IMG/VR virus record: IMGVR_UViG_2778261504_000023
Span: 1 to 40,045 of that record
Length of the DNA: 40,045 nucleotides
Direction: 5' to 3' (one strand)
Origin: a virus
Taxonomy: Duplodnaviria; Heunggongvirae; Uroviricota; Caudoviricetes
In this document: positions 1,450-33,200 of the stretch, one piece after another
Layout: the number at the start of each line of letters is the position of its first letter
How positions within the stretch are numbered: the stretch's first letter is position 1
Notes under the pieces: model-generated
Databases searched by the model: none
What the model was told of the DNA's origin: nothing
What the model saw: the letters and a program-made list of their open reading frames with translations, nothing else
Program-made: the position numbers and the translations under genes

Positions 1450-2096
1450 GCAGCACGCTCCCGCCCCTGGTTGTCTGTTGGTGACAGCGGAGCATTGCTG
1501 AATGCATTTGTTAATCCGCCAATATCCAACGCGTATCCATGGTGTAGTTGTACTGCCGGGTCTTCGCACTGATTACCCCAAACATCGAAGCCATGAGACG
1601 ACTGGCGGGCGAACAGTTCAATGCGAGAAACATCGCCTAACAATTGCACAAGTTTTTCACGAACGACATCTGGTTTTCTTGAATGCTCAAGCCGCGGTGC
1701 GGTAAATGACTGAACGATCCCTGCATTAATGCGCGTAGGTAGTTTTCCCTTTACCGCAAACAGGCAATCTTCACTATTGGCGCGAGTCATGTGTCCCATA
1801 CCCATAACCAGTTTATCTGGTTGTCGACTACCACATTTTATCCACGTGAAGCCCTTCATGGTCATCAGACGGAATCCCCAGGCTTCAACAACTTTTAGTG
1901 CTTCGAGTGGTTGTGTTGGCACCCACCACATGGCCAACAGACAGTTTTTATCGGCCAAGTCCCACACAGGAAGGCGGCAGATATCCAGCACACTCATAAC
2001 CGGATATTTAAAACCTGCACCGCGATTACCATCTGCGGCTTTGTCCCGGTATACCCAGGGTGGATCTGCATAGATTAGTGTGTATTTCTTATTCAT
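1446..2096 (-). CDS. DNA N6-adenine methyltransferase, MT-A70 family
   Basis: MNKKYTLIYADPPW... with DPPW catalytic motif near N-terminus; ATG at 2096 preceded by GGGGTGG; upstream ORF stop overlaps this start. Confidence 0.75.
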   Translation of the reverse strand: MNKKYTLIYADPPWVYRDKAADGNRGAGFKYPVMSVLDICRLPVWDLADKNCLLAMWWVPTQPLEALKVVEAWGFRLMTMKGFTWIKCGSRQPDKLVMGMGHMTRANSEDCLFAVKGKLPTRINAGIVQSFTAPRLEHSRKPDVVREKLVQLLGDVSRIELFARQSSHGFDVWGNQCEDPAVQLHHGYALDIGGLTNAFSNAPLSPTDNQGRERAA

Positions 2097-2277
2097 AAAC
2101 CACCCCACAACATCCTATGCCGCTATAGTCGCCACGGCGAAGGCCGTTACCTTTTGTGATACATTGGTCCCTGCGAACCGCGATCCTTGCACGCTCAACA
2201 TCACCAGAAGCAACATCCATACACTGAAGCCAAAGGTGGGTGGCAATGCGGAACTGCCCTTTTTTTCTCTCTTTCAA
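2089..2277 (-). CDS. Hypothetical protein (TTG start in ORF track); possibly the 3' part of a gene split at an A7 homopolymer
   Basis: ORF ends with TAA overlapping the methyltransferase start (ATGAATAA), suggesting translational coupling; an overlapping ORF in another frame (2201..2389) abuts a run of 7 A (coding strand) at 2260..2266. Confidence 0.25.
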   Translation of the reverse strand: MKERKKGQFRIATHLWLQCMDVASGDVERARIAVRRDQCITKGNGLRRGDYSGIGCCGVVYE

Positions 2278-4966: not shown

Positions 4967-5045
4967 TTACCTTTTTAGGTAATAATTATGCTTATTTGGT
5001 TTGGTGTCAATAGATATGAGTTAAAAAAAATTACCCGTAAGGTAA
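4967..5045. promoter_or_regulatory. Leftward operator/promoter region (OL-like) with two palindromic sites
   Basis: TTACCTTTTTAGGTAA at 4967..4982 and TTACCCGTAAGGTAA at 5031..5045, between repressor 3' end and start of leftward early operon. Confidence 0.6.
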
Positions 5046-5102: not shown

Positions 5103-5687
5103 TTATTGTTTGCTTTTTTCGTTCTGGTTGATGACAAATTCAATGTAACTTTCGATCTTTGCTTTCTCTGTTTCAGGTAACAATGCGTAGCGCGAGCGGT
5201 CATAGTTGATAGTTGCAGGGTCGTGCGGGTGAATCAGTAATTCATAGCCGTGACGCCCGAATGCGGATGCAACATTCTCCAGGGTGGAAATGGAAACGCT
5301 GACCTCATTGTTTAACAGGCGGCTGATTGTCACCTGGGCTACGCCGGATGCGCGGTGAAGTTTTCCCTGTGTTGAAAGGTCTCGGCTTTCGCTCATCCAG
5401 CGTTCCAGGTTGTGAGCCGCCAGCTGGCCAATGTCGCTTGGGCCGACAGGCTGAAAACCTTCCTGAGAAAGCGAGCGATCGATATCAAGCCAGTTACGGG
5501 GTTTATTGGCGGCAGCTTCAATTTTTCGTGCAACCTGGTCGCCGATAACCTTCTTGCCAAGAGCCCAGCGGTTTACCAGATTTGCCTGAGTTCCAAGTTT
5601 TTCTGCCATCCGCGTCTGAACACCATTGAATTCACGGTCGATCAAGTCGTTGAGATTTTGCCTGCGGACGTCCTGGATACTTTTCAT
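5103..5687 (-). CDS. Prophage repressor, CI-like but lacking a recognisable S24 autocleavage domain (two HTH-like segments)
   Basis: 194 aa; HTH-like segments QTRMAEKLGTQANLVNRWALGKK and ASGVAQVTISRLLNNEVSVSISTL; divergent from cro-like gene with operator palindromes between; no GDSM/Ala-Gly-Ser-Lys cleavage motifs seen. Confidence 0.6.
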   Translation of the reverse strand: MKSIQDVRRQNLNDLIDREFNGVQTRMAEKLGTQANLVNRWALGKKVIGDQVARKIEAAANKPRNWLDIDRSLSQEGFQPVGPSDIGQLAAHNLERWMSESRDLSTQGKLHRASGVAQVTISRLLNNEVSVSISTLENVASAFGRHGYELLIHPHDPATINYDRSRYALLPETEKAKIESYIEFVINQNEKSKQ

Positions 5688-11660: not shown

Positions 11661-12254
11661 ATGCCTGCTGAACCTAAAACCTATAAACGCAAATCAACGC
11701 AATTTAAGCCACTAACAGCAATGCAGGAGGCTTATTGCCAGTCATACATCAAAACGCCTGAAAACCAGACTCAGGCAGCGATTAACGCAGGATTCTCCCC
11801 AAATACAGCGGCAGTTAAAGCCAGTGTCATGATGCGCGATGAACGCATTCAAAAACGGATTGCCGAGTTGATGGAGGAGCGCAACAAACGAATGCGCGTC
11901 AGTGCTGATTATGTGCTGAGGCGCCTGGTGGAAATAGACCAGATGGACGTGATCGATATCCTTAACGACGATGGGAGCCTTAAGCCCATCCGCGAGTGGC
12001 CGAAAATCTGGCGCACTACGCTTAGCGGCTTTGATCTGTCATCGACCATCATGAACATGAACGAGGATTCGATAGAGACAATCCTCAAAAAAATTAAATG
12101 GCCTGACAAGGTGAAGAACCTCGAACTGATTGGTAAGCACGTCGACGTCAACGCATTCAAAGAACGCCTGGATGTTAATGTGAATGTGACAATTGCTGAT
12201 CGCATAGCGGCAGCCAGGAAGCGACTCAAAGAACGTCAGGATGGTAATCAGTGA
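11661..12254 (+). CDS. Terminase small subunit (P27-family type)
   Basis: 197 aa from ATG 11661; N-terminal region MPAEPKTYKRK...LTAMQEAYCQSYIKTPENQTQAAINAGFSP typical of terminase small subunits; stop overlaps terL start. Confidence 0.7.
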   Translation: MPAEPKTYKRKSTQFKPLTAMQEAYCQSYIKTPENQTQAAINAGFSPNTAAVKASVMMRDERIQKRIAELMEERNKRMRVSADYVLRRLVEIDQMDVIDILNDDGSLKPIREWPKIWRTTLSGFDLSSTIMNMNEDSIETILKKIKWPDKVKNLELIGKHVDVNAFKERLDVNVNVTIADRIAAARKRLKERQDGNQ

Positions 12255-13726
12255 CAGATACAGCGTTATCTCCTGAAGAGCAGTTGATCGAGGATATTGC
12301 AGGGTTCACTCACGATCCGCTTGGTTATGCCCTCTATGCGTTCCCGTGGGGGGAAGAGGGGACTGAACTGGCACATGCTACCGGTCCACGTCAGTGGCAG
12401 GCTGATGCGTTCCGAGAGATACGTGATCACCTGCAGAATCCAGAGACGCGCTATCAGCCGCTTATGCTGGCACGTGCTTCGGGTCACGGTATTGGTAAAT
12501 CCGCATTCATCTCAATGCTGATCAACTGGGGCATGTCCACTTGCGAGGATTGTAAGGTCGTGGTGACCGCCAACACCGACAACCAGCTACGAACGAAGAC
12601 CTGGCCGGAAATTATCAAGTGGTCGAACCTTGCTATCACGAAAGACTGGTTTACCTGTACCGCTACCGCGATGTACAGCAATGATCCTGGGCACGACAAG
12701 CGGTGGCGCGCTGACGCAATCCCCTGGTCTGAGCACAACACTGAGGCGTTCGCGGGACTACACAACGAGCGCAAACGCATCATCGTGGTGTTTGATGAAG
12801 CGTCGAACATTGCGGATCTGGTGTGGGAAGTTGCTGAGGGTGCGCTTACGGACGAAGACACTGAGATTATTTGGGTGGCGTTCGGAAACCCGACGCGTAA
12901 TACCGGGCGATTCCGTGAATGCTTCCGCAAATACAAGCACCGCTGGAAGTGTGCGCAGATAGACAGCCGGACGGTGGAAGGTACTAACAAACAGCAGTTG
13001 CAGAAATGGGTTGATGACTACGGGGAAGACAGCGACTTCGTTAAAATCCGTGTGCGCGGCATATTCCCTGATGCATCTGAATTGCAGTTTATCCCTACCG
13101 GTCTTACTGATGAGGCAATGAAACGGGTGGTAACCGCTGCGCAGGTGGCACATGCTCCGGTGATAATCGGTGTTGACCCGGCATATTCAGGCGTTGATGA
13201 CGCGGTGATATACCTGCGGCAGGGGTTGCATAGTAAGGTGCTATGGACTGGCAACAAGACCACTGACGATCTGATAATGGCGAAGCGTATCGCTGACTTT
13301 GAAGACCAGTACCAGGCTGACGCAGTGTTCATCGACTTCGGTTACGGAACTGGTCTGAAGTCAATCGGTGATGGCTGGGGACGTACATGGCAACTTGTTC
13401 CGTTCGGCGGTGCGTCCACTGACCCGCAGATGCTTAACAAGCGTGGGGAGATGTTCAACTCATGTAAGACATGGCTGAGGCTCGGCGGGATGCTGGATGA
13501 CCAGGAAACAGCGGACGACCTGTCGGCGGCAGAGTATAAAGTTCGAGTGGACGGTAAAATCGTTATCGAACCGAAGGAAGATATCAAAGAGCGACTTGGG
13601 CGTTCGCCGGGTAAAGGCGATGCGCTACTGCTGACGTTTGCTTTCCCTGTGTCGAAGCGTCTGCGAATTCCTGGGCAGCAGAACCAGCAAGGCAAGGCCA
13701 TCACAGATTATGACCCGTATGCTTAA
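12251..13726 (+). CDS. Terminase large subunit
   Basis: 491 aa; Walker A-like ASGHGIGKS; acidic nuclease-domain residues in C-terminal half; position after terS. Confidence 0.85.
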   Translation: MTDTALSPEEQLIEDIAGFTHDPLGYALYAFPWGEEGTELAHATGPRQWQADAFREIRDHLQNPETRYQPLMLARASGHGIGKSAFISMLINWGMSTCEDCKVVVTANTDNQLRTKTWPEIIKWSNLAITKDWFTCTATAMYSNDPGHDKRWRADAIPWSEHNTEAFAGLHNERKRIIVVFDEASNIADLVWEVAEGALTDEDTEIIWVAFGNPTRNTGRFRECFRKYKHRWKCAQIDSRTVEGTNKQQLQKWVDDYGEDSDFVKIRVRGIFPDASELQFIPTGLTDEAMKRVVTAAQVAHAPVIIGVDPAYSGVDDAVIYLRQGLHSKVLWTGNKTTDDLIMAKRIADFEDQYQADAVFIDFGYGTGLKSIGDGWGRTWQLVPFGGASTDPQMLNKRGEMFNSCKTWLRLGGMLDDQETADDLSAAEYKVRVDGKIVIEPKEDIKERLGRSPGKGDALLLTFAFPVSKRLRIPGQQNQQGKAITDYDPYA

Positions 13727-13800
13727 TCCGCTGGTGGGGATAATGTCGTTGATATCCTCTGATGAGGATAAAACAAAGCCAGCTCATCGGCTGGCTGTTT

Positions 13801-13812
13801 GTGACATGTCAC
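13801..13812. repeat. 12-bp perfect palindrome GTGACATGTCAC (copy 2 of 3)
   Basis: Preceded by hairpin AGCCAGC-tcatcg-GCTGGCT at 13777..13796, 50 bp after terL stop. Confidence 0.8.
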
Positions 13813-13816
13813 GGTG

Positions 13817-14188
13817 TTATTGCTCGCTTAGCTTCTGCTTCAGCAAGTAACCTTCGAGCATCCAGATTTTGTTTACAGCATTCTGCCGGGCAATCTTCCG
13901 ACCAATTTCTGCATCAAAATTTTCCGGACTTGCACAGGCACTCTCTCCGGTGACGGTGAAGCCGTTGCGCAGTACCAGGACGCAGAACGTCAGCAGAGAA
14001 AGTGATTCGTGCGGCTGGTAGTTTACCTCTCCGCCAGTATGTTTCGCTTTTATGGCTTTGCCAAAGGCACCATCTTCTGCTGTGAAATATGCCTCCTGAG
14101 CAATAATGCCTTCGATATGGTCTGGCGTAACGCGCGGTGCCGTTTTTCCTTTCTCAACGATTTCTTTTTCGATTTGCTGGTCGTTCAT
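13817..14188 (-). CDS. Hypothetical protein (123 aa) in antisense cassette with tRNA-Arg
   Basis: ATG 14188 with SD AAGGTGAG; no motif recognised; antisense to late operon. Confidence 0.5.
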   Translation of the reverse strand: MNDQQIEKEIVEKGKTAPRVTPDHIEGIIAQEAYFTAEDGAFGKAIKAKHTGGEVNYQPHESLSLLTFCVLVLRNGFTVTGESACASPENFDAEIGRKIARQNAVNKIWMLEGYLLKQKLSEQ

Positions 14189-14199
14189 AATCTCACCTT

Positions 14200-14224
14200 A
14201 AAAAAATGCCCGGCGAACCGGGCG
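14200..14224 (-). terminator. Terminator/attenuator-like hairpin immediately 5' of the RBS of gene 13817..14188
   Basis: On minus strand: CGCCCGG-ttcg-CCGGGCA followed by TTTTTTT then AAGGTGAG-ATG. Confidence 0.5.
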
Positions 14225-14301
14225 AACTGGAAGCAATGAGTTATGCCTTCCGTGGCTGTACGGGTTTACAGCATGAAGTCATCGCAATGGCGTCCTGCTG
14301 T

Positions 14302-14343
14302 AAAAAGGGCGGTGATAGTCCTTCAAGGGAAACCATCACCGCC
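14302..14343 (-). terminator. Intrinsic terminator-like hairpin downstream of tRNA-Arg (minus strand)
   Basis: On minus strand GGCGGTGAT-N18-ATCACCGCC followed by CTTTTT. Confidence 0.5.
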
Positions 14344-14386
14344 AAGCACCTGGAACTTCTGGCATCACGGTCCTTAGGCGTGATTC

Positions 14387-14463
14387 TGGCGTGGCATGCA
14401 GGATTCGAACCTGCGACCAACCGCTTAGAAGGCGGTTGCTCTGTCCAACTGAGCTAATGCCAC
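14387..14463 (-). tRNA. tRNA-Arg (anticodon UCU)
   Basis: Reverse complement folds as cloverleaf: acceptor GTGGCAT/ATGCCAC, D-arm GCTC/GAGC, anticodon stem ACCGC/GCGGT with loop CTTCTAA, T-arm GCAGG-TTCGAAT-CCTGC, discriminator G, encoded CCA. Confidence 0.85.
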
Positions 14464-14785
14464 AACGCTGAGAGCACTTAGCCTGTTAAGGCGCCACACT
14501 TTGTCGCGGCTCCATAAATGCTCTCATCGTTGTACCCTCGTCTCTTCCGAGGTGTCACACCGAATCGCCGGGATGGTGAATCCCCGTGCGCGGAATAAAA
14601 CCGCTCGACTTGCACATTCCGGCTACCTAGTTCGTTTGCCCGAGCAAGGGAGGGTGCCCCTTAAACGTATCCAGACCGCTATCGGCGCATGTGCCATACG
14701 CCGTACTGCTCAAAATAAAAGCTCACTCCACCTGTTCAATTTAACGACAAGCCAGTCAGGTTAATAACAGGAATGCACTCTATGC

Positions 14786-14850
14786 TTACCTGAAAGGTAA
14801 TAATTCGTGTGTTAAATGTCAAGTGTGTACGATAAATAAATCATATGTGG
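14786..14850 (+). promoter_or_regulatory. Putative head-operon promoter module: TTACCTGAAAGGTAA plus TATGTGGTT
   Basis: Palindrome 14786..14800; TATGTGG at 14844..14850; upstream of 14891. Confidence 0.5.
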
Positions 14851-14890
14851 TTAAATTGGTAATAATTTAATTGCGTACGGAGTCATTGAT

Positions 14891-15111: not shown

Positions 15112-16782
15112 ATGGCGGAAACAACTAAAGAGCGATTGAACAAACAGTTCGCACAACTTGAAAGCGAGCGTCAGTCGTTCGAGCCGCACTGGCGCGAGTT
15201 GAGTGATTACATCAACCCGCGTGGTTCCCGCTTTCTGACTTCTGAGGTCAACCGTAACGATCGACGCAATACACGCATTATTGATTCGACCGGGACTATG
15301 GCGGCGCGCACTCTCGCCAGCGGCATGATGTCAGGCATCACAAGCCCCGCGCGTCCGTGGTTTCGCCTGGCTACGCCAGATCCTGAAATGATGGATTATG
15401 GCCCTGTTAAGTTGTGGCTTGAGGCGGTGCAGAACCGCATGAACGATATGTTTAATAAGTCGAATCTCTATCAGTCGCTGCCGCAGTTATACGGAAGCCT
15501 CGGCACATACAGCACTGGTGCAATGGCAGTGCTGGAGGATGACGAGGACATCATTCGCACAATGCCATTCCCGATAGGCAGTTACTACCTGGCTAACTCA
15601 CCTCGTGGCAGTGTGGACACCTGTTTTCGCAAGTTCTCTATGACTGTTCGTCAGCTTGTTCAGGAGTTCGGGCTAAATAACGTCAGCGAATCCGTAAAAA
15701 GCATGTGGGAAAGCGGCACCTACGAGAAGTGGATTGAGGTGATGCATTCGGTTTACCCGAACATTGACCGCGATACATCGAAGCTGGATAGCAAGAACAA
15801 GCCATTCAAATCGGTTTATTACGAGGTTGGCGGCGACAACGACAAGTTGTTACGTGAATCCGGATTCGATGAGTTTCCAATTATGGCTCCGCGCTGGGAA
15901 GTTAACGGAGAAGATGTTTATGGATCATCATGCCCGGGTATGCTGGCGCTTGGACCTGTTAAGGCATTGCAGCTTCTTCAGAAGCGCAAGTCGCAGTTGA
16001 TTGATAAAGCCACCAATCCGCCGATGGTTGCTCCGACTTCCCTCAAGAATCAGCGTGCCTCCCTTCTTCCTGGCGACATCACGTATATCGATCAGATTAC
16101 TGGTCAGGATGGTTTCAGGCCTGCTTATCTGGTTAACCCCAGTACAGCAGATTTGGTGGCAGACATTCAGGACACTCGTCAAATCATTAACAGCGCCTAC
16201 TTTGTCGATCTGTTCATGATGTTGCAGAACATCAATACCCGCTCGATGCCTGTTGAAGCGGTGATCGAAATGAAAGAAGAAAAACTTCTGATGTTGGGGC
16301 CGGTTCTGGAGCGTCTGAACGACGAATGTCTTAATCCTCTCATTGACCGCGCTTTCTCGATGATGGTGCGTAAAAACATGATGCCGCCACCGCCTGACGC
16401 GATGGAAGGTATGCCCCTGAAGGTCGAATACATTTCCGTCATGGCTCAGGCGCAGAAGTCTATCGGCCTGTCCAGTCTGGCGTCTACGGTCAACTTCATT
16501 GGTCAACTTGCGCAAGCGAAACCAGAAGCTCTCGACAAACTCAACGTTGATCAGGCGATCGATGCATTCGCTGATATGTCCGGTGTGTCTCCAACCGTCA
16601 TTGTTCCGCAGGAACAGGTTGAGCAGGCTCGCCAGCAACGGGCACAACAGCAACAGCAGCAACAAATGATGGCGATGGGGATGGCGGCGGCACAGGGTGC
16701 CAAGACGCTAAGCGAAGCTAAAACTTCGGATCCGAGTGTTTTGTCAGCTATGGCGAATGCAGTTAGTGGTCAGGGTGGGTAA
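15112..16782 (+). CDS. Portal protein (podovirus head-to-tail connector type)
   Basis: 556 aa; position after terminase; Gln/Ala/Met-rich C-terminus as in podoviral connectors; family assignment from memory. Confidence 0.75.
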   Translation: MAETTKERLNKQFAQLESERQSFEPHWRELSDYINPRGSRFLTSEVNRNDRRNTRIIDSTGTMAARTLASGMMSGITSPARPWFRLATPDPEMMDYGPVKLWLEAVQNRMNDMFNKSNLYQSLPQLYGSLGTYSTGAMAVLEDDEDIIRTMPFPIGSYYLANSPRGSVDTCFRKFSMTVRQLVQEFGLNNVSESVKSMWESGTYEKWIEVMHSVYPNIDRDTSKLDSKNKPFKSVYYEVGGDNDKLLRESGFDEFPIMAPRWEVNGEDVYGSSCPGMLALGPVKALQLLQKRKSQLIDKATNPPMVAPTSLKNQRASLLPGDITYIDQITGQDGFRPAYLVNPSTADLVADIQDTRQIINSAYFVDLFMMLQNINTRSMPVEAVIEMKEEKLLMLGPVLERLNDECLNPLIDRAFSMMVRKNMMPPPPDAMEGMPLKVEYISVMAQAQKSIGLSSLASTVNFIGQLAQAKPEALDKLNVDQAIDAFADMSGVSPTVIVPQEQVEQARQQRAQQQQQQQMMAMGMAAAQGAKTLSEAKTSDPSVLSAMANAVSGQGG

Positions 16783-24077: not shown

Positions 24078-26590
24078 TGCCAGTCGTACCAACAGTATCC
24101 GGACGTCAGGTTGAGAGCCGTGGAGTTCAGTCAGCAGGCTTGCAGACGTTTTCTCAGCCAGGTATTGGTGATGCTTTTGTTCGGGCAGGGGCAGAGACTA
24201 TTGATGTTTTTGGTCAGGCAAAACAGCGTGCCAATATCGCTCTGGCTCAGGAGGCATCTCTTAACCTCAGTCAGATAAGCAGCGATCTGCTGAATAACCC
24301 TGAAACAGGGTTGCTTAACCTGAAAGGGAAAAATGCTATTGGAAAAGGCCATGAGTATACGCAGCAGTTTGATGCTCAGGTCGAACAACTGGCTATGTCG
24401 CTGCCGGATGAACAGGCTCGTAATACTTTCATGCAGCAGGCGCAGCAGCAGCGCATTCAGTTCACTACGCAGGCCGGGCGGCACGAGATAGGGCAAATAA
24501 ACGCCTACGAAGAAGGCCAGTTTCAGGCTACGCTGCTGAACAATGGTAAAAATGCCGCAGCATTGTATGGCGACAACGCCGCATACGTATTGGCTAATAA
24601 GCAAACTTTCCAGCAAATTGAGGATTACGGCATTGCGCATGGCTGGAGCGACGAGCAAATCCAGGCCAAGAAAGTCGAGTTTAAAGAGAAGGTTGCTGAT
24701 GCCGCATTGTCCCAGTGGTCGGCAAACAATGCGACCGCATTCATCCAAAGTAATGGCGAGTTAAGTGATACTGCTGCTGGAGCTCGCCGTGCTGTAGCAG
24801 ATAGTGACTCTTCCGAGCGTGCCCGTGGCATACGCAACAATAACCCAGGAAATCTCGAATACAGCAAAACTAATCCGTGGGTAGGCCAGACCGGTGATGA
24901 TGGTCGATTTGCTAAATTCGAAACACCTGAACACGGGATTCGTGCATTAGGGCGAAACCTGATGTCGTATCAGAGGCAGGGTATTGATACCGTCAGCGAG
25001 ATAATTAATCGCTGGGCACCGCCTACTGATAAAAATGACACTATGTCGTATATCAAAGCAGTGTGCGAACAACTTGGCGTTTCTGCTGATGAGCCTCTTG
25101 ATGCATCTAATCCTGATACCCTGAAGGCGCTTTGTGCAGCCATTATCCATCATGAGAACGGTAGCCAGCCATACAGTGATCAGCAGTTAACTGCTGGTGT
25201 CAGTGCAGCACTTGGTTTATCAACAATTCCAACCAACACCAAACGCTATACCGGTAATGCAGCATTCGATGCGGCATCTCCTGAGGCGCAGGCAAGTTTT
25301 ATGCGACAGGCGGATCAACTGCGTCGGCAGCAGCAGGCTGAATATAAAACGATGATTGACAGCCAGGTTCGCGATGCGACAGCTGCGTATATGCGTGGCG
25401 TTGAATTTCCTAACCCACCTGGTGAGGCTGATTTTATTGCAGCTTATGGAGTAAGAGAAGGAAACCTGCGATATACCGAGTTCAGAAATACGCAAATCGC
25501 CGGACAGTATATAGGCTCTTTCCGCAACATGCCGACAAGCAGCATTACAGCATATGTTGAGCAATTACGCCCGGATACTGGTGAGACAGGGGAGGGGTAT
25601 GCGGCACGCGCAGCTCTTTATGACAACGTTGTTTCGGCTGCAAATCAGGTGATAAAGCAGCGGCAGTCGGATCCTGTGCAGTTCTCTCTTGCCTCCGGAC
25701 AGGCAAAGCCTATCGACATGAGCAATAAGGATAACTTTGGACAGAGCGTTGCCTTGCGTGCCGCTCAGGTCAGTGATCTTGCTAAGTCATATGGCACTCC
25801 ACTGACGTTCTTTTCCAAAGACGAGGCCAATCAGATCGGTGTTTTCTTTCGTGATGCTCCAGTTTCCCAACAGGCAGCATATCTCGATACCATCAGGCAG
25901 AGCACTGGTGGTGGGCAGGTGTATATGTCAGCACTACAGCAGATCAGTGCCAACGCTCCATCTGCTGCCGTTGCCGGGATACTGATGGATAAGCCTGGTG
26001 GTATTTTGGCAGAAAAAAACTGGTTTAATCCTGATGTTTCCGTGTCTCCTGAAACCGCAGCGCAGACAATTCTTGCTGGTGCGGCGGCTCGTAAGGGTAC
26101 TGATGACGCGAAAGGTATTCCGATGCCTAAAGATGCTGATCTTCGCCTTGAGTTTTCTGACATGGTGAAGGATGCATTTGCTGGTGATGCTCAGGGGGCA
26201 TCAATGGCATACGAGATCGCAAAGGACTATTACGCTGGTGTGATGGCGAAAAAAGGCGTGGTATCAGGCGAAATTGACAATGATATCTGGAAACAGGCTG
26301 TTAACGTAGCTACAGGTGGCGTGCATGACTATAACGGAATGGGGAATGTTCTTTTGCCGTGGGGAATGTCTGCAGAGCAATTCGATAAGCAGGTTAATCA
26401 GGTTTGGAATGAACAAGTTGTTGGCACAGGGATAAAAACACCGCCTGGTCAGTATGGTTTGCAAAGTTACGGCGATAGTCAGTACCTGGTGAAACTTGGT
26501 ACTGGTTATCTGCTGAAAGATGATGGTTCTCCCGTTGTTCTTGATCTGACTCAGAAGCGTCAGAGATTCTCCGGAAATATTCCGCAATGA
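24077..26590 (+). CDS. Internal virion / ejection protein (837 aa) with conserved RNNNPGN-containing domain
   Basis: ATG 24077 overlapping upstream stop; segment ARGIRNNNPGNLEY...GRFAKFETPEHGIRALGRNL, a motif I recall from virion-associated cell-wall-acting domains (uncertain). Confidence 0.5.
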   Translation: MPVVPTVSGRQVESRGVQSAGLQTFSQPGIGDAFVRAGAETIDVFGQAKQRANIALAQEASLNLSQISSDLLNNPETGLLNLKGKNAIGKGHEYTQQFDAQVEQLAMSLPDEQARNTFMQQAQQQRIQFTTQAGRHEIGQINAYEEGQFQATLLNNGKNAAALYGDNAAYVLANKQTFQQIEDYGIAHGWSDEQIQAKKVEFKEKVADAALSQWSANNATAFIQSNGELSDTAAGARRAVADSDSSERARGIRNNNPGNLEYSKTNPWVGQTGDDGRFAKFETPEHGIRALGRNLMSYQRQGIDTVSEIINRWAPPTDKNDTMSYIKAVCEQLGVSADEPLDASNPDTLKALCAAIIHHENGSQPYSDQQLTAGVSAALGLSTIPTNTKRYTGNAAFDAASPEAQASFMRQADQLRRQQQAEYKTMIDSQVRDATAAYMRGVEFPNPPGEADFIAAYGVREGNLRYTEFRNTQIAGQYIGSFRNMPTSSITAYVEQLRPDTGETGEGYAARAALYDNVVSAANQVIKQRQSDPVQFSLASGQAKPIDMSNKDNFGQSVALRAAQVSDLAKSYGTPLTFFSKDEANQIGVFFRDAPVSQQAAYLDTIRQSTGGGQVYMSALQQISANAPSAAVAGILMDKPGGILAEKNWFNPDVSVSPETAAQTILAGAAARKGTDDAKGIPMPKDADLRLEFSDMVKDAFAGDAQGASMAYEIAKDYYAGVMAKKGVVSGEIDNDIWKQAVNVATGGVHDYNGMGNVLLPWGMSAEQFDKQVNQVWNEQVVGTGIKTPPGQYGLQSYGDSQYLVKLGTGYLLKDDGSPVVLDLTQKRQRFSGNIPQ

Positions 26591-28389
26591 GTTACTTTGG
26601 CCTTAATCCAGTAAACCAGAATCAGCAGCTTGACGAAGCAGCATCAAATCCAGCGGGCTTTAACAGCGATGTTGGTTTTTTCGACAATGCTGTAGGAGCG
26701 GCATTGTCTGGTTTGTACTCCGGGCTGGTGGCAAAGCCAGATCAGTTGCTATGGGCAGGGATGGATAAAATCGTATCCCCGATTGCTCAGTTTGTTAACG
26801 AAAACACCTCGCTCAATGACACTTCAGTTTCATACATTGCCGAGCAGAGAAAACTAGCAGAGCAGCAGGTTAAGCGGCTGACGCCTGATGCGGCGACAAC
26901 TGGAACCGCCGGGCAGGTTCTTTATGGGTTGTTCGATATGGGCGGGCAGGCTGTTGTCGGTACAACGCTCGGTGGTCCGGTCGGAGGTGCAGCGGCGGTA
27001 ACTTCGCTACAGGGTTTTTCTGAGTTTGAACGGCTGACAGCACAGGGTGTTGATTTTAGGACGGCGCAGGAAGCAGGATTAGTGCAGGGTATTACTGCTG
27101 GTGCCGGAACACTGATCCCTATGAGCCTCGGGTTACGTGCTGGTGGTGCGCTGGCGGAAGGTGTGGCGGCCCAGCTTCCGCGGACGGGTGAAAGTTCAGT
27201 GCGACGCGCCGCAGCAACAGCAGTACGTGCAACGCCAGATATTGCCTATGCCGCAGGTACAAATATTGCGTTCGGTATGGCACAGCGTGGGCTTACTGCA
27301 AAAACGCTTCGTGATGGTGGCTATAGCGAAATGGCTAACCAGTATGATGTGTTGGATCGACAGGCAATTGCTATTGATGCTGTTCTTGGAGTGGCGTTTG
27401 GTGGTGTCGGCAGATTTATTAACTCTCGCGGCGAGTCTACAAGCGCACCAAATTTTTCACCAGTTGATGTTGATGCTGCACTGGCGGCGAATGCCGCTCA
27501 TCATGCTGAAATTGATATTGCGCCCGGCGTGCCGATCAACGTGCTTTCGCGCAATTCTCACATTCAGGCTCTGCGAAAAGCTATGTCTGATGTTAGCCAG
27601 GGGAGACCTGTAGACGTTGCCAGCATTGTTGAGTCTGCATCTTTCAGTGAAATTCCTGGGCGCAAGAGTCTGCTGTCTCAGGCAGTTAATGAGGCTCTGT
27701 CATCTGTAGATGATGGAGTAACGGCGCGCGCTATAGAAAATCGGTTGCTTGAAGAACAGGCCGCGCAGCTTTTGCCGCGTGGCGATAGACAGGTTTACCA
27801 GTCTGAAATCGCTAATAGCCAACGAATTATTGAAAATCTCACTGAACAGCGCGCACAAATTCTTGCAGAAGAGCCAACCGGTAGCGGTAAATCTTTGTCT
27901 CGTGCTCGATCAGATAAACAGGTCAGACTTCGCGATATTGACCAACGAATCCGGCAGGCACAAGAACGCCTGGAATTTTCCCGTAACGCGTTGGCACCGC
28001 ATGAGCCTGGCGGTCAGTTTTTTGAAGCTCGAGCAGAACTGGCACGGAGACAGCAGGCTGAAAGTGAACTTAATGCTCAGGCTGTTTCATTCTATAAAAC
28101 AGCAGAGGTCAGGACGCCAGACGAAGTAGCTCCTTTTGAGCCTGATAAAATATTGCAACAGGCAGAACAAAAAATGATGGCGGATCAGGCAGGAGATATT
28201 GATCTGCGCATAGCTGAAGACTCGCTGCTTGAATCACCTGACATGATAATCACCGTGCTGGATGATGATGGTAATCCACAATCGCGCAGCGCGCGTGAAG
28301 TACTGGATGAAGCGAACAGGGAAAGTGAGCAGGCAATACAGGATTCCAGCCTGTTTGATGTCGCTGTGGCGTGTTTCTTGAGAGGTTAA
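26587..28389 (+). CDS. Internal virion / ejection protein (600 aa)
   Basis: Large Ala-rich protein in series with neighbours; overlapping stop/start. Confidence 0.45.
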   Translation: MSYFGLNPVNQNQQLDEAASNPAGFNSDVGFFDNAVGAALSGLYSGLVAKPDQLLWAGMDKIVSPIAQFVNENTSLNDTSVSYIAEQRKLAEQQVKRLTPDAATTGTAGQVLYGLFDMGGQAVVGTTLGGPVGGAAAVTSLQGFSEFERLTAQGVDFRTAQEAGLVQGITAGAGTLIPMSLGLRAGGALAEGVAAQLPRTGESSVRRAAATAVRATPDIAYAAGTNIAFGMAQRGLTAKTLRDGGYSEMANQYDVLDRQAIAIDAVLGVAFGGVGRFINSRGESTSAPNFSPVDVDAALAANAAHHAEIDIAPGVPINVLSRNSHIQALRKAMSDVSQGRPVDVASIVESASFSEIPGRKSLLSQAVNEALSSVDDGVTARAIENRLLEEQAAQLLPRGDRQVYQSEIANSQRIIENLTEQRAQILAEEPTGSGKSLSRARSDKQVRLRDIDQRIRQAQERLEFSRNALAPHEPGGQFFEARAELARRQQAESELNAQAVSFYKTAEVRTPDEVAPFEPDKILQQAEQKMMADQAGDIDLRIAEDSLLESPDMIITVLDDDGNPQSRSAREVLDEANRESEQAIQDSSLFDVAVACFLRG

Positions 28390-28394
28390 ATTAA

Positions 28395-30869
28395 ATGAGA
28401 CAGGAATGTATACAAGCGGTCCAGCAGGCGGCGCAGCGCACGTTAACGGCGCGAGAAATACAGAACATTGAAGACCGCATTTATCGAAATATGCGCTCCA
28501 TTGCTCGTGATGACCCGATGTCGTGGAGACAACTTTCCGAATCAGAGCGGCTATATCGTGCAGCACAATTGGCATCTGAAGGATTACAGCGAGAAGCGGC
28601 ATTAAAGAAACGTCGTGTGGCCCTCACTATAGCCGCACGTCAGAGATTGGATAAATTTATCAATAGCTATCAAGGGGCTGATGGGAAACTTGGCGCTCTT
28701 AACCGTACTATTGCTTTTAATGCAGACGGTAAATCGAATTTCCTCTCTGTTGAATCCAGAACAAAAGCCACCCGTGATTATGCATTGAGTCAATTGCAGG
28801 AGGCATTCGAAGCAGTTGATCCTCGCTTTTTTGGTCTGTTTGAAGATGAAGCGGGCGTACGTGACCTGGTATATGAAATGCGGGGGCAAAATACTGGCAA
28901 TGCTAAAGCAAGAAAAGGTGCTAAGGCGTGGAGAGAAGTTACAGAGCTGCTGCGCCGCCGGTTTAATGATGCTGGTGGGGACATTGGCTATCTCGAAAAC
29001 TGGGGGATCCCTCAACATCATTCTATGGAAAAGGTTGGGGCGGTATCAAAAGATAAATGGGTTAGCGATGTTATAGGTAAGCTGGATCGCAAATATTATA
29101 CCCTAGCCGATGGACAACTGATGAACGATGCCGAGTTGTCTGCATTTCTTGGAGAGGCTTATAACACGATCGCTACTGGTGGGCTGAATAAGCTTACTGA
29201 TACCGGAATGCGAATTTCCGGCGCACGTGCTAACCGTGGTAATGCATCACGACAGATACATTTCAAAGATGCAGATTCCTATCTGCAATATCAGCAACTT
29301 TATGGCGATCGCTCTCTATGGGAAATCATGGTCGGTCACCTTGAAGGTATCAGTAAAGATATTGCATTGGTGGAAACATATGGCCCAAACCCCGATCATG
29401 TTTTCCGCTCTCTTCTTGATCAGGTGAAGGCAGAAACGGCAACAGCTAACCCGAGTAAAACCGGTAAAGTCGAGCGGCTGGCGAACAACACAGAGAATCT
29501 GTACAACTTTATTTCCGGAAAGACACAGCCTGTAGCGAATCCGCACATCGCGCGCTGGTCTGACAATATCCGCAACTGGCTGGTTGCCAGCCGACTAGGA
29601 TCCGCGTTGCTGTCATCGTTCTCTGATCTTGGAACCATGTATCTGTCTGCGAAGGTGACCAACCTTCCAATGAACCAGTTATTCCGCAACCAGCTTGAAG
29701 CTATGGACCCAACGAACCGTACTGAGCTTGCGCGGGCGCGCCGCGCTGGTCTGGCGATGGAATCTCTACTTGGCAGTGTTAACCGCTGGGCGATGGATAA
29801 TATGGGGCCGTCTGTGTCTCGTTGGGCGGCGACGGCGGTAATGCGTGCCAGTGGGCTTACAGCATGGTCAGATGCGCACAAGCGCGCCTATGGCGTAACC
29901 ATGATGGGAAGCCTGGGAGAAGTAGTGTCACGGACACCAGACCTTCGTAGCCTCGATGACTCTGATTTTCGTATCCTGAAAAGCAAAGGGATTACTGACA
30001 CAGACTGGAGTGTATGGAAGCTGGCGCAACAGGAGGACTGGGGGAACGGTAATAATACGATGCTGACACCGGAAAGCATTATGCGTATCCCTGATTCAGC
30101 AGTTAAACATCTTGGTGAGCCTGAACGCGTGAAATTTGAGGCAATGCGTAAACTGCTCGGTGCCGTAACTGAAGAAGTTGATATGGCTGTTATTACACCG
30201 GGTGCACGTGAGAAACTGATAACCGGTTCTGGTATTCAGCGTGGAACATGGAAAGGTGAATTAACGAGAAGTGTTTTCCTGTTTAAATCGTTCCCTATCT
30301 CGGTGGTTATGCGTCACTGGTCACGCGCTATGGGTATGCCGTCGGCTGGTGGGCGTGCGGCATATATTGCGACGTTTATTGCCAGTACGACCATTCTTGG
30401 CGCTTTGTCGCAGCAACTTAACGACCTTGCGTCTGGTCGTAATCCTCGCGAGATGACAGGAGAAGATGCTGCTAAATTTTGGCTTGGTGCTCTACTGAAA
30501 GGTGGTGGTCTTGGCCTTTACGGTGACTTTTTATTGTCAGATCACACTAGGTACGGAAGCGGCGCGCTGGCGTCGATGCTTGGCCCGGTAGCTGGTCTGG
30601 TTGATGACGTAGTGAAGATTGCTCAGGGCATACCGTTAAATGCTGTGGAAGGGAAGAGTGAGCAGACTGGTGGTGATCTGGTGAAGCTGGGGAAAGGTTT
30701 GATGCCAGGTGCGAATCTCTGGTACTTAAAGGCGGCTCTCGATCATATGATCTTTAACCAGATGCAGGAGTATTTTTCACCAGGCTATTTGCGTAAAATG
30801 GAGCAACGTTCGAAGAAAGAGTTTAACCAGACATACTGGTGGCGACCTCAGGATGTCACTCCGCAATAA
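28395..30869 (+). CDS. Internal virion / ejection protein (824 aa, gp16-like position)
   Basis: SD GAGAGG; large protein at position of podoviral core proteins. Confidence 0.45.
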   Translation: MRQECIQAVQQAAQRTLTAREIQNIEDRIYRNMRSIARDDPMSWRQLSESERLYRAAQLASEGLQREAALKKRRVALTIAARQRLDKFINSYQGADGKLGALNRTIAFNADGKSNFLSVESRTKATRDYALSQLQEAFEAVDPRFFGLFEDEAGVRDLVYEMRGQNTGNAKARKGAKAWREVTELLRRRFNDAGGDIGYLENWGIPQHHSMEKVGAVSKDKWVSDVIGKLDRKYYTLADGQLMNDAELSAFLGEAYNTIATGGLNKLTDTGMRISGARANRGNASRQIHFKDADSYLQYQQLYGDRSLWEIMVGHLEGISKDIALVETYGPNPDHVFRSLLDQVKAETATANPSKTGKVERLANNTENLYNFISGKTQPVANPHIARWSDNIRNWLVASRLGSALLSSFSDLGTMYLSAKVTNLPMNQLFRNQLEAMDPTNRTELARARRAGLAMESLLGSVNRWAMDNMGPSVSRWAATAVMRASGLTAWSDAHKRAYGVTMMGSLGEVVSRTPDLRSLDDSDFRILKSKGITDTDWSVWKLAQQEDWGNGNNTMLTPESIMRIPDSAVKHLGEPERVKFEAMRKLLGAVTEEVDMAVITPGAREKLITGSGIQRGTWKGELTRSVFLFKSFPISVVMRHWSRAMGMPSAGGRAAYIATFIASTTILGALSQQLNDLASGRNPREMTGEDAAKFWLGALLKGGGLGLYGDFLLSDHTRYGSGALASMLGPVAGLVDDVVKIAQGIPLNAVEGKSEQTGGDLVKLGKGLMPGANLWYLKAALDHMIFNQMQEYFSPGYLRKMEQRSKKEFNQTYWWRPQDVTPQ

Positions 30870-31460: not shown

Positions 31461-32093
31461 TTAATGCAGTTTATCTTTGCTTATAACCAGTAGTCTGTGG
31501 GTATGCACATCTTTATCACTGCCCCAACAGAAATCAGCCCACTGGCTATAGAAATCATCCCATGATGTCATGAAGCTAAGAGGTCTATCTTCTTCAGAGC
31601 CATCTGAAACGTATACATTATATCCCGGGGTGTTTATAGCCCAAGAAATCATTCTTTCCCAGAATCTTCTCCCATCGATTGTTTGTTGCTCATCAGATAC
31701 AACGATCGCATATTGCTCTAGGAAGAACTGAAAAAAAATCTGAGGCAAACCATGAACAGCACGGTCATGAATAACATTAGGCGTACGCCATACCATGATC
31801 TGCGTACATGTTCTTTTGGCTTCGACGATATCTTCCCGAAAGATTAACTTAACCGCATACACCGTTTCTGGAGTATCGCTGGTAGTAATCATTCTGTAAT
31901 GATCGCCATTACAAGATTTTACAAGGCGATAACCATAAGGTGTTGTGAATCCCGGAAGAACGAAATCAACCACACCTTTCGCTAAGTAGCTTTCGGTGTG
32001 ACTAGTGTTCTTCTCAGACATGTTCAGTTTTCTATCGAAATCTGCTTCTGGGATAATGTATGGCATCGCTTTTCTTGTTGTATTTGTTCTCAT
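31461..32093 (-). CDS. Hypothetical protein (210 aa), AT-rich moron of unknown function
   Basis: Strong SD GGGAGG before ATG 32093; visibly AT-rich compared with flanking structural genes; own upstream palindrome and downstream terminator. Confidence 0.55.
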   Translation of the reverse strand: MRTNTTRKAMPYIIPEADFDRKLNMSEKNTSHTESYLAKGVVDFVLPGFTTPYGYRLVKSCNGDHYRMITTSDTPETVYAVKLIFREDIVEAKRTCTQIMVWRTPNVIHDRAVHGLPQIFFQFFLEQYAIVVSDEQQTIDGRRFWERMISWAINTPGYNVYVSDGSEEDRPLSFMTSWDDFYSQWADFCWGSDKDVHTHRLLVISKDKLH

Positions 32094-32919: not shown

Positions 32920-33185
32920 AGTGATCACCTTTGTAGTTAGGTTAATCACCACTACCGACGCCAATCGGTTGGTGGTGAACTGTGCAGGGTTGGCGTAACC
33001 GGCTACAAAGGACCCGGCGCACCTTTCGGTGCCCCCACACAGCCCACCATAGAATAGGTGCGCTTTACACATAAAAAAACCGCTTATGCGGCATATGTGC
33101 CTCTGTAGTAACCCGGGACGCCAATCCCGGCACTGGATTTTGCCAGTGCCCGATTACTATGGCACAAGAGGAGTGCGATGTAAAT

Positions 33186-33200
33186 TTACCGCAAAGGTAA
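33186..33200. promoter_or_regulatory. Palindrome TTACCGCAAAGGTAA in leader upstream of bro-N gene
   Basis: Perfect TTACC-N5-GGTAA. Confidence 0.55.

Follow-up and report, generated by a model that had tools for sequence, protein, structure and literature searches.

The window is the whole stretch of DNA that was analysed, 40,045 nucleotides in length, and is a phiV10/epsilon15-type prophage. Between terL (12251..13726, +) and the portal gene (15112..16782, +) it carries a cassette on the opposite strand, in line with the first-pass annotation, which had placed the cassette antisense to the late operon, between terL and the head genes. The positions given there for the tRNA, the open reading frame, and the hairpins are all borne out by ARAGORN, Rfam, a terminator scan, and the ORF list. 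From 5' to 3', the cassette comprises a sigma-70 promoter with its -10 hexamer in an operator, a leader, a structured RNA, tRNA-Arg(UCU), a hairpin, T1, T2, and a fixed ribosome-binding site, followed by the anti-defence cargo gene, which is exchangeable. The individual features are:

14817..14822, minus strand: -35 hexamer TTGACA of the cassette promoter, read from the sequence
14786..14800, minus strand: palindrome TTACCTTTCAGGTAA, a putative prophage-repressor operator that overlaps the -10 hexamer TACCTT (14799..14794)
14704..14785, minus strand: 5' leader segment from the predicted start (about 14787) to the core RNA, kept only among epsilon15-type phages
14683..14703, minus strand: P1 hairpin CGGCGUAU-GGCAC-AUGCGCCG, 98% of cells paired
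14620..14678, minus strand: P2, built of an invariant base (CGG/CCG), an internal loop, and a distal helix that covaries and differs in length
14609..14619, minus strand: invariant single-stranded GAAUGUGCAAG
14590..14604, minus strand: P3, a small variable hairpin found in all homologues, which aligns poorly and lies outside the covariation scoring
14554..14584, minus strand: pseudoknot, supported by covariation, in which the loop CACC of the hairpin GGGA-UUCACCA-UCCC pairs with a downstream GGUG
14536..14552, minus strand: P6 hairpin CCUCG-GAAGAGA-CGAGG, 97% paired, with 3 covarying pairs
14464..14532, minus strand: P7, a long closing helix with a variable insert, in which 11/12 inner pairs covary
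14387..14463, minus strand: tRNA-Arg(UCU) with encoded CCA, in the cloverleaf slot of the module (ARAGORN, Rfam)
14364..14384, minus strand: conserved hairpin AUCACG-CCUAAGGAC-CGUGAU after the cloverleaf
14300..14343, minus strand: T1, a 14-pair hairpin with CUUUUUAC, from the terminator scan
14224..14299, minus strand: T1-T2 interval, kept in phages that carry different cargo, with one hairpin at 14301..14268 and another at 14251..14229
14200..14223, minus strand: T2, GCCCGG-UUCG-CCGGGC with A and seven U, from the terminator scan
14192..14199, minus strand: ribosome-binding site AAGGUGAG, part of a conserved platform by sequence and comparison
13817..14188, minus strand: cargo gene for a 123-aa protein of Pfam PF13876 (Gp49 / Acb4 family)
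13770..13796, both strands: T3, a terminator hairpin common to the cassette (-) and terL (+), from the terminator scan

The cassette promoter consists of TTGACA, a 17-nt spacer, and TACCTT, and an identical promoter is present in SPN9TCW. It was missed by the promoter scan, as it falls under the rule of 4/6 in the -10 hexamer. The window has 12 occurrences of the pattern TTACC-N5-GGTAA, where 0.5 would be expected, and two of them adjoin the gene 5103..5687 for the cI-like repressor. In the record of epsilon15, a repressor site is annotated within the region homologous to 14786..14800. Since the promoter contains the operator of the prophage repressor, the cassette is one early, repressor-controlled, leftward transcription unit. 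The leader has 84 nt, and the distance from the predicted start to P1 is 83 nt in the window, with a median of 48 nt elsewhere.

The segment 14703..14464(-) is a structured RNA of about 240 nt that belongs to an undescribed family. It consists of two stems, a pseudoknot, a hairpin, and a long closing helix, with the core P1-P6 at 14703..14536(-) and helix P7 at 14532..14464(-). The stretch 14464..14785 had earlier been described as free of credible ORFs and holding further hairpins; beyond such hairpins, it contains a conserved, covarying RNA. In the alignment, 88.8% of cells are paired versus 30-44% in slid controls, 28 pairs change on both sides, and 0/500 shuffles reach the observed values. 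One P1 pair is G-C in 30 and A-U in 28 sequences, and one P2 pair is C-G in 42, U-A in 13, and U-G in 5. The pseudoknot hairpin is 99% paired with 3 covarying pairs, and one pseudoknot pair is C-G in 54, A-U in 6, and unpaired in 0. G-U pairs fix the strand of P1 and the core RNA. By covariation, the structured RNA is thus real and strand-specific. A small-protein reading of the upstream stretch, with a 45-aa ORF (14478..14615, -) and an 87-aa ORF (14501..14764, +), is rejected because of the G-U-dependent covariation, the pseudoknot, and 1-2-nt indels between homologues.

Matches to the structured RNA occur in 1843/5426 complete E. coli genomes (34%), and in 1472 of the 1843 at least 80% of the query is covered. 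Among 40 matches listed, 39 are full or near-full, and no RefSeq feature is annotated under any of them. With Rfam 15 at E <= 10, no family matches the structured RNA on the minus strand of 14464..14711 or its homologues in mEp460 and SopranoGao. A literature search on the conserved strings and on put-like elements in prophages found nothing relevant. A sequence pattern retrieved 140 unique copies, in which invariance inside the pattern, including that of GAAUGUGCAAG, is by construction; this string is also kept in a BLAST-derived set that is independent of the pattern. Lambdoid prophages hold 72/140 copies directly after a co-oriented cI-type repressor gene, 46/140 lie in the epsilon15-type slot between terL and portal, and 10/140 are P1-type. 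The P1-type copies lack P7 and have no terminator behind them; they are located after trnI, 2.3 kb into the ban operon.

ARAGORN calls a tRNA-Arg (anticodon tct) at 14387..14463(-), and the Rfam tRNA model (RF00005) gives 73.3 bits against a gathering score of 29. Arginine identity in tRNAs depends on A20, C35, U36, and a purine at position 73. The sequence contains these elements, with the D-loop AGUUGGACA carrying an A after GG, the anticodon UCU, and a discriminator G followed by CCA. The tRNA matches 64/77 bases of E. coli argU. The earlier call of an argU-like tRNA-Arg(UCU) is upheld. Rfam otherwise returned chance matches from terminator shape, such as RyhB at 18 bits. The slot that holds the tRNA is variable. 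Among the 140 unique copies, 24 have a true tRNA-Arg and 54 have a tRNA-like cloverleaf, so that a cloverleaf directly adjoins P7 in 78/140, and most relatives have a non-canonical cloverleaf of 60-311 nt at the tRNA position. In the window, the 3' strand of P7 contains the string UGCUCUCA (14476..14469), and its GUU end directly precedes base G1 of the tRNA. The AUCACG hairpin follows both true tRNAs and tRNA-like units in many loci. A tmRNA-like reading of the cloverleaf was dropped; ARAGORN calls a tmRNA in 1/140 contexts.

The T1 stem (14343..14308, -) is followed by CTTTTTACAG with the U-tract CUUUUU. It represents a covarying family, GGCGGnnnnnG..CnnnnnCCGCC-UUUUUACA, that occurs in epsilon15-type and lambdoid loci. 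The T2 stem (14223..14208, -) has 6 pairs, all G-C, followed by ATTTTTTT, and is kept through double changes (GCCCGG/CCGGGC versus GCCCAC/GUGGGC). This conservation, with T1 covarying in many phages, shows that the two hairpins are more than chance. Both have the full anatomy of intrinsic terminators, a G+C-rich hairpin and a U-tract, and termination is predicted at each, as the first-pass annotation had proposed. A third minus-strand hairpin (13796..13777) follows the 123-aa gene within T3, where the phiV10 record annotates a terminator. The scan of the region finds 4 terminator sites versus 1.7 +/- 1.5 in shuffles.

The string AAGGTGAG (14199..14192) begins right after the seven T of T2, and the ATG is at 14188. 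The position of T2 before the ribosome-binding site is constant in relatives, where T2-U7-AAGGUGA-N4-8-AUG precedes at least nine unrelated ORFs. These cargo ORFs are always co-oriented with the structured RNA, inside an oppositely oriented late region. The promoter scan gave no sigma-70-type match between the tRNA and the 123-aa gene, and a sigma-70 promoter between T1 and the gene is therefore rejected. This covers 14188-14224 and agrees with the earlier remark that the hairpin leaves no room for a promoter ahead of the gene. The claim that the gene needs terminator readthrough is strengthened, as the platform recurs before unrelated cargo and every epsilon15-type locus has at least one terminator.

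A hidden promoter, activator-dependent or for another sigma factor, in the T1-T2 interval or over T1 could instead drive the cargo and make the hairpins irrelevant to its expression. The strong conservation of the 76-nt interval and the hexamer TTTACA in the T1 tail, a 5/6 match to the -35 hexamer, speak for it. However, the interval has no sigma-70 match, no acceptable -10 lies 16-18 nt after TTTACA, and transcripts from a start of this kind would still have to cross T2 ahead of the gene. This explanation is very unlikely.

Plain attenuation or insulation is unlikely as well, though less so. Here T1 and T2 would be ordinary tRNA-operon terminators that keep the cargo low and block read-in, and the upstream RNA a 5' UTR that only stabilises the transcript or aids its processing. 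After processing, T2 would serve as a protective 5' hairpin of the cargo mRNA. Intrinsic terminators are common behind tRNA genes, and a stable hairpin with a U-tract directly 5' of a ribosome-binding site can increase mRNA stability and translation. In epsilon15 itself, T2 and the cargo are kept although the core, the tRNA, and one half of T1 are gone, which is in line with attenuation and indicates that the structured RNA is dispensable for this phage. In contrast, attenuation leaves unexplained the invariant unpaired nucleotides and the pseudoknot across lambdoid, P1-type, and epsilon15-type phages, and the position of the RNA at the head of pL operons.

The protein behind this platform matches PF13876 (Phage_gp49_66) with 119.5 bits against a cut-off of 27, over the whole 82-position profile, and has an N-terminal extension of about 20 residues ahead of the Pfam domain. 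PF13876 is the Acb4 family (PMC11722364). The protein also aligns with PDB 9e4w_A (Acb4) over the ENF..EIGR segment (E = 0.006). By homology, it is an Acb4-family anti-CBASS sponge homologue. The 123-aa gene had been recognised before as an ORF (13817..14188, -), with its family membership missed. Like Acb4 of Bacillus phage SPO1, the protein is a clear member of PF13876, but it is distant from SPO1 Acb4, and nucleotide sequestration is predicted by homology only. A Klebsiella relative carries a Tad2-like cargo, which shows no meaningful BLASTP similarity to the Gp49 protein. PADLOC models gave no match to three cargo proteins.

Promoter-like sites within 200 nt upstream of the RNA occur in 53% of loci, versus 4% in the antisense and 4% in the downstream control. 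In the region from roughly T1 to the first gene, they are likewise present in only 4% of loci. In mEp460, the cI stop is followed by a terminator, an operator-flanked pL, and then the structured RNA at about +30. At least one stringent same-strand terminator lies within 800 nt after the RNA in 74% of 125 loci, and 26% have none; the share with one is 100% for epsilon15-type and 73% for cI-adjacent loci. The density is 1.28 per kb on the same strand versus 0.23 per kb antisense. These values come from the stringent version of the terminator finder, since a relaxed version gave equal counts on both strands and was dropped. Beyond the terminators lie promoter-less genes. No N-type gene is annotated after the structured RNA in five lambdoid records, and a limited check of the first downstream ORFs for an N-type protein gave no relevant Pfam match.

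It is highly improbable that the core is riboswitch-like and senses a host metabolite or signal to which early phage transcription responds. The invariant unpaired nucleotides at a multi-helix junction with a pseudoknot and the variable 3' parts would suit a sensor. However, the first terminator lies 153-633 nt past the conserved core, behind the tRNA or cloverleaf, so there is no adjacent, coupled expression platform. Furthermore, the downstream genes have no common function, and no Rfam riboswitch matches.

With an early promoter before it and terminators after it, the structured RNA is the obvious candidate for a terminator read-through device. From its position and from analogy, we infer an antitermination mechanism, and we give slightly less than an even chance to a leader that works in cis on the principle of HK022 put. 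The RNA would make the polymerase from which it has newly emerged resistant to termination, as do HK022 put RNA or lambda nut/N. Read-through of T1 and T2 into the cargo would then be confined to transcripts begun at the cassette promoter, and in the lambdoid relatives the RNA would allow pL transcripts to extend into the early-left genes. RNase P cleavage at the cloverleaf would free the tRNA and set the 3' end of the leader RNA. Against this reading stand the P1-type copies with no terminator behind them, the 26% of loci in which the stringent finder sees none, the loss of the core in epsilon15, and the negative covariance-model tests on put described below.

The main competing explanation, somewhat doubtful in our view, is a self-contained ncRNA and tRNA operon. 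A long RNA would end at T1, with T2 as a back-up, and RNase P would free a stable 5' domain that acts in trans as a regulator, decoy, or anti-defence RNA; the cargo would be reached by terminator leak only. In two unrelated phage groups, the sequence of T1 is conserved along with the RNA, which also fits an ncRNA gene ending at T1. The cloverleaf, a known RNase P substrate shape, adjoins P7 in the 78 copies noted above, and the 601-nt region folds with a z-score of -4.6. The P1-type copies between a tRNA and ban, without a terminator, and the anti-defence nature of the neighbouring cargo genes point the same way. On the other hand, 72/140 copies have pL ahead of them and the entire early-left operon behind them, promoter-like sites are absent after T1, and an efficient stop at T1 would silence these genes. 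The cargo ORFs, moreover, all have the orientation of the RNA and are attached to the ribosome-binding site that the platform provides. The ncRNA operon and the antitermination leader are not mutually exclusive.

The closest known parallels of such a leader are HK022 putL and putR and the putL-like RNA of HK639, the latter reportedly described by King et al. in 2011. RNAs of the put type bind the beta' zinc-binding domain of RNA polymerase without other factors and suppress pausing and termination; the rpoC change Y75N in this domain blocks put. They occur in lambdoid phages without N, directly after an early promoter and upstream of terminators, and the structured RNA has the same layout. Both begin with two adjacent stem-loops and a short linker, and contain the strings A-CGGCG..CAUG-CGUCG-NN-AGCG and (C/G)AAUG(N)UGC in the same order. 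U28 and A64 of put, within those strings, are functionally critical, and put stays active once untethered from the transcript (PMC9378689). Cleavage by RNase P at the cloverleaf would agree with the latter. The two RNAs differ in size, with about 70 nt for put and about 240 nt for the structured RNA, which has in addition the pseudoknot, the P6 hairpin, the long P7 helix, and the adjoining cloverleaf. Stem I is a simple hairpin in the structured RNA, whereas put has a 5' duplex and triplex. The structured RNA occurs as one copy per phage, and put as a left and right pair.

Membership in the put family is rejected on two negative covariance-model tests, to be read with the caveat that putL and putR miss each other by blastn-short too, and the resemblance serves as a lead only. 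A model of the two-stem module gave 3.7 bits and E about 1 with HK022 putL (2.4-kb search, filters off), and HK639 putL was not listed in this search. A model of three put RNAs had no match in 12 loci holding the structured RNA.

The structured RNA also resembles lambda N/nut and the boxA- and Nus-factor-dependent antitermination of rRNA operons in lying at the head of the pL operon. It has a boxA-like string, UGCUCUCA in the window and UGCUCUUU in some relatives, often with a hairpin about 12 nt later. The consensus GCUCUU[UA] is present in only 19/110 copies, and the string is base-paired within the covarying helix P7, whereas the reference boxA of nut is single-stranded and GCUCUUUA-like. 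The hairpin is a D-arm-like part of the cloverleaf and not a boxB pentaloop. A boxA/nut reading is not favoured, as the motif is mostly imperfect and inside a helix. A boxB with an N-type protein just downstream has no support from this hairpin, from the five lambdoid records, or from the Pfam check of the first downstream ORFs. The EAR RNA of Bacillus eps operons mediates processive antitermination from within the operon. Like EAR, the structured RNA is longer than 100 nt, lies in or ahead of an operon, and would promote read-through of distal terminators. However, EAR is an Rfam family of a different host clade, with no sequence or structure match to it.

A broader and more tentative reading, possible but well short of even, takes the RNA and the adjoining cloverleaf as a new phage RNA class that reprograms host RNA polymerase. 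It would do as an RNA what lambda N does as a protein, and in a large proportion of enterobacterial prophages, namely in lambdoid pL operons, the P1 ban operon, and epsilon15-type early cassettes. The tRNA or tRNA-like unit would give RNase P a handle by which the polymerase-bound RNA is detached from the rest of the transcript. Among epsilon15-type phages, the device would control access to an exchangeable position for anti-defence genes, with the Acb4-like and Tad2-like sponges as examples. In a more radical variant, the released RNA may work in trans, for example against host defence.

To our knowledge, HK022 put and its few close relatives are essentially the single known case of RNA-only processive antitermination in phages. 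Should the structured RNA work like put, the strategy would be common and not exotic; its matches include Stx2c-converting, cdtI, and P1-type phages. This would explain the expression of the early-left operon in many lambdoid prophages without an N gene. At a minimum, the RNA is widespread and conserved, and is absent from Rfam and RefSeq annotation. The family is large and covaries well, which allows the direct design of tests by mutation, structure, and RNA polymerase binding. The fixed junction of terminator and ribosome-binding site in epsilon15/phiV10-type phages takes unrelated cargo, including the Acb4-like and Tad2-like sponges, and the T2/ribosome-binding-site junction is a simple sequence handle for finding new anti-defence genes.

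Transcription of tRNAs together with mRNAs is known from the argU-like and ileZ-argN-argO tRNAs of Stx phages and from the thrU-tyrU-glyT-thrT-tufB operon. In these co-transcripts and in trnI-ban of P1, the tRNA is transcribed with downstream protein genes and freed by processing, and the cassette likewise has a phage tRNA-Arg(UCU), which would read rare AGA codons. Unlike them, it has its tRNA in a slot that mostly holds a non-canonical cloverleaf, and two canonical terminators before the gene. The decoding of AGA, which had been proposed as the role of the tRNA, appears weak as its main purpose, as AGA and AGG come to 5.7 and 5.2 per 1000 codons in crude ORFs, the head genes and the cargo are almost free of both, and the slot is mostly occupied by a non-tRNA cloverleaf. 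The tRNA-Arg(UCU) probably supplies AGA decoding as well.

The tRNA-Arg(UCU) cassette lies on the minus strand between terL and the portal gene, and the window around it is a phiV10/epsilon15-type (Uetakevirus) prophage of E. coli. A 1.2-kb stretch is shared with phage phiV10 at ~95% identity and with several E. coli chromosomes at 98.8%, and the RefSeq annotation of the matching stretch lists a terminase gene, a 'Gp49 family protein', tRNA-Arg, a 68-aa protein, and the portal gene. The first-pass annotation had described the tRNA, two terminator-like hairpins behind it, and a 123-aa gene whose ribosome-binding site abuts the second hairpin, and this observation is confirmed. The tRNA was found at 14387..14463(-) by ARAGORN and Rfam (73.3 bits against a threshold of 29), has its CCA end encoded within the gene, and matches 64 of 77 positions of E. 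coli argU. A terminator scan recovers T1 (stem 14343..14308 plus CTTTTT), T2 (stem 14223..14208 plus A and seven T), and a third hairpin, 13796..13777, downstream of the 123-aa gene. The ribosome-binding site AAGGTGAG starts at the base right behind the T2 T-run, with the ATG at 14188. As claimed, the interval appears to hold no promoter: the scan gives no sigma-70-type site from the tRNA to the 123-aa gene, and a promoter hidden between T1 and T2 is a less likely explanation. The earlier interpretation, by which the gene depends on terminator read-through or transcript processing, is partly supported and is extended by a conserved RNA upstream.

The seemingly empty stretch upstream of the tRNA, 14464..14703(-), holds a conserved, covarying structured RNA. 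BLAST of 14464..14830 finds 70-82% identical stretches in unrelated phages, among them cdtI, mEp460, mEp390, Stx2c- and Stx2a-converting phages, P1, P7, D6, SJ46, and Klebsiella, Enterobacter, and Salmonella phages. In the aligned homologues, invariant sequence blocks alternate with covarying helices. A search pattern built from two invariant blocks retrieved the RNA from 24 species genomes, nearly all Enterobacteriaceae, and from >120 viral contigs (140 unique copies). The way these copies were retrieved accounts in part for their invariance within the pattern; the BLAST-derived set is equally conserved. Covariation was scored for a 44-pair structure on an alignment of 60 sequences. Paired cells amount to 88.8%; sliding the partners by 1-3 columns gives 30-44%. 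Both sides change in 28 pairs, and none of 500 shuffles reaches the observed values. The RNA is assigned to the minus strand because G-U pairs are frequent. The cassette comprises the following elements.

14822..14794, minus strand: promoter TTGACA-17-TACCTT
14703..14683, minus strand: P1 hairpin
14678..14620, minus strand: P2, whose base is invariant and whose tip varies and covaries
14619..14609, minus strand: invariant single strand GAAUGUGCAAG
Between the GAAUGUGCAAG strand and the pseudoknot, minus strand: P3, a small variable hairpin
14584..14554, minus strand: pseudoknot; for one of its pairs, 54 sequences have C-G, 6 have A-U, and none is unpaired
14552..14536, minus strand: P6 hairpin
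14532..14464, minus strand: P7, a long helix
14387..14463, minus strand: tRNA-Arg(UCU), the cloverleaf
14384..14364, minus strand: conserved hairpin past the cloverleaf, followed in order by T1, a conserved 76-nt interval, T2, and the ribosome-binding site

Of 5426 complete E. coli genomes, 1843 contain a match to the RNA, and 1472 of these have a single place that spans 80% or more of the query. Plasmids carry 554 of the matched places, and the plasmid hits among those listed are P1-size replicons that match like P1. Neither the window copy nor either of two homologues matches anything in Rfam 15 at E <= 10, and 39 of the 40 E. coli hits among those listed have no annotated feature under the match. 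This widespread, unannotated structured leader RNA, together with a terminator-gated slot for a downstream cargo gene, is the object of interest.

The 3' end of P7 (..GUU) directly touches the cloverleaf. The slot behind it is filled by a true tRNA-Arg(UCU) in 24 copies and by a tRNA-like unit of 60-311 nt in 54 copies. In this unit, GUGGUG and CACCAC pair in the manner of an acceptor stem, one hairpin resembles a D-arm, and the T-like arm is mostly non-canonical; P1-type copies sit behind trnI instead. The tRNA-Arg(UCU) thus occupies a structural slot of a larger module. In two homologous loci (L028 and L045), a P7-type helix plus GUUGUGG unit occurs twice in tandem behind one core RNA (P1 to P6), an arrangement that points to P7 as part of the cloverleaf unit and not of the core. 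The homologue in 65FD has a ~270-nt insert between P6 and P7.

Supply of rare AGA decoding, proposed earlier for the tRNA, is plausible as a support function. Over 46 crude ORFs, AGA and AGG reach 5.7 and 5.2 per 1000 codons, values a few times those of E. coli. These codons are concentrated in tail, injection, and some early genes, and the head genes and cargo have almost none. Decoding cannot explain the cassette architecture. The densest ORF, 31461..32093(-), has 10 AGA in 210 codons; ORFs 26587..30869 and 33685..36312 have 7 AGA each, and the terL, portal, and capsid-region ORFs have none.

Among the 140 unique copies, the core RNA lies directly behind a co-oriented cI-type repressor gene in 72, in the slot between terL and portal in 46, and in the P1-type tci/ban operon in 10; 12 are unclassified. 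A same-strand promoter-like site occurs within 200 nt upstream of the RNA in 53% of loci, compared with 4% antisense and 4% in a downstream control, and the median distance from predicted start to P1 is 48 nt. The -10 of the cassette promoter falls within the palindrome TTACCTTTCAGGTAA. Its motif, TTACC-N5-GGTAA, has 12 copies in the window, compared with an expected 0.5 (positions 5031, 5743, 5791, 8050, 8112, 11626, 11644, 14786, 32153, 33186, 33566, and 36841), and two copies adjoin a cI-like repressor gene, 5103..5687(-). The palindrome is probably the operator of the prophage repressor, spread over many promoters like the C1 operators in P1. As the -10 lies inside it, the cassette is most likely an early unit that is shut off by the repressor in the lysogen.

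When intrinsic terminators are defined stringently, one or more on the same strand lie within 800 nt behind the RNA in 74% of 125 loci. Their density is 1.28 per kb, versus 0.23 per kb antisense, and the first is at a median of 221 nt past the core. Terminators are present in 100% of epsilon15-type loci (two in 69%), 73% of cI-adjacent loci, and 0% of P1-type loci. T1 belongs to a conserved covarying family, GGCGGnnnnnG...CnnnnnCCGCC-UUUUUACA, common to epsilon15-type and lambdoid loci. In mEp460, a terminator follows the cI stop; next come a promoter with operator-like repeats on its flanks, the RNA at ~+30, and a non-coding stretch of ~320 nt that contains terminator-like hairpins and leads to the first gene. 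The annotations of cdtI, mEp460, mEp390, 733R5, and BUCT708 show no N-type gene behind the RNA.

The anatomy, conservation, promoter proximity, downstream terminators, and lack of promoter-like sites behind those terminators are observed. From these parts we infer that the RNA may act in cis on the polymerase that transcribed it, giving read-through of T1 and T2, and in lambdoid relatives would give read-through of the terminators barring the early-left operon. We place this cis-acting device at a little under an even chance. Plain attenuation and a riboswitch have lower odds. The chief competing reading is a self-contained operon of non-coding RNA and tRNA that ends at T1, from which a stable, processed 5' domain works in trans. 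The co-inheritance of T1 with the RNA, the cloverleaf, and the P1-type copies fit this operon, whereas the position of the RNA between pL and a whole operon speaks against efficient termination. The operon and cis read-through can coexist.

The logic of cis read-through is that of HK022 put. The RNA was compared with putL and putR, located in HK022, and the annotated putL-like RNA of HK639. Two strings agree in order with put, A-CGGCG..CAUG-CGUCG-NN-AGCG and (C/G)AAUG(N)UGC, and span the sites of U28 and A64, two nucleotides critical in put. A covariance model of the two-stem module gives putL only 3.7 bits, HK639 putL is absent from its hits, and a model from the three put RNAs has no match to the RNA copies. 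Membership in the put family was rejected, since the covariance models are negative in both directions. The RNA and put may still share a distant ancestor, because putL and putR themselves miss each other by blastn-short. P7 holds a boxA-like string that is base-paired and, in most copies, imperfect. The HK639 putL-like RNA, 34187..34312(-), has boxA-like GCUCUUUG behind its two stems, and the same record annotates an 'M3-like RNA' behind cII, 37910..37969.

The 123-aa product matches Pfam PF13876 over its full length (119.5 bits) and aligns to the anti-CBASS 4 solved structure 9e4w_A (E = 0.006). According to the paper on Acb4 (PMC11722364), this Pfam family corresponds to Acb4, a family of cyclic-nucleotide sponges. 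The junction T2-U7-AAGGUGA-N4-8-AUG is constant across epsilon15-type phages, the next ORF comes from at least nine unrelated families, and T2 stem pairing is preserved through double changes. The contact between terminator and ribosome-binding site is therefore a selected, reused design with its swap point at the start codon. ORFs behind the junction include Acb4-like proteins and proteins starting MKTVDMLAKYL.., MSETSTVSF.., and MSRYYD... A Klebsiella relative has a Tad2-like gene (PF11195) in the equivalent position, behind the variant junction T2-U7-AGAGAGGAAAUC-AUG, and six loci have a second operator and promoter (TTACCTTAAAGGTATAAT) in place of the ribosome-binding site. The T2-U7-AAGGUGA junction is a searchable hotspot for candidate anti-defence genes. 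In epsilon15 (~2085..2110), a deletion between two UUCCCUUGAUGCU copies, in the P2 tip and the T1 loop, takes the core, the tRNA, and half of T1, and leaves T2 and the cargo. A same-sense motif is common to both sites, UCCCUUG in the window (P2 tip within 14678..14620, T1 loop within 14343..14308) and UUCCCUUGAUGCU in Salmonella phages, and is also found in two homologues (L003 and L014).

In Klebsiella phage SopranoGao (1850..2114), a non-lambdoid siphovirus, the core RNA comes after the spanin gene, a strong terminator (GCCCGCCGUUCCAGCGGGC plus U7), and a promoter-like site (TTGCAA-18-TATATT), whose predicted start is ~1 nt before P1. Elsewhere in the window, Rfam finds C4 antisense RNA (79.5 bits) and isrK (74.7 bits) at 32968..33149(-), isrK lying 19 nt upstream of C4. 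The pair resembles an immI (c4/ant) immunity module of P1/P7 type, here carried by an epsilon15-type prophage, and the TTACC-N5-GGTAA copies at 33186 and 33566 lie near it.
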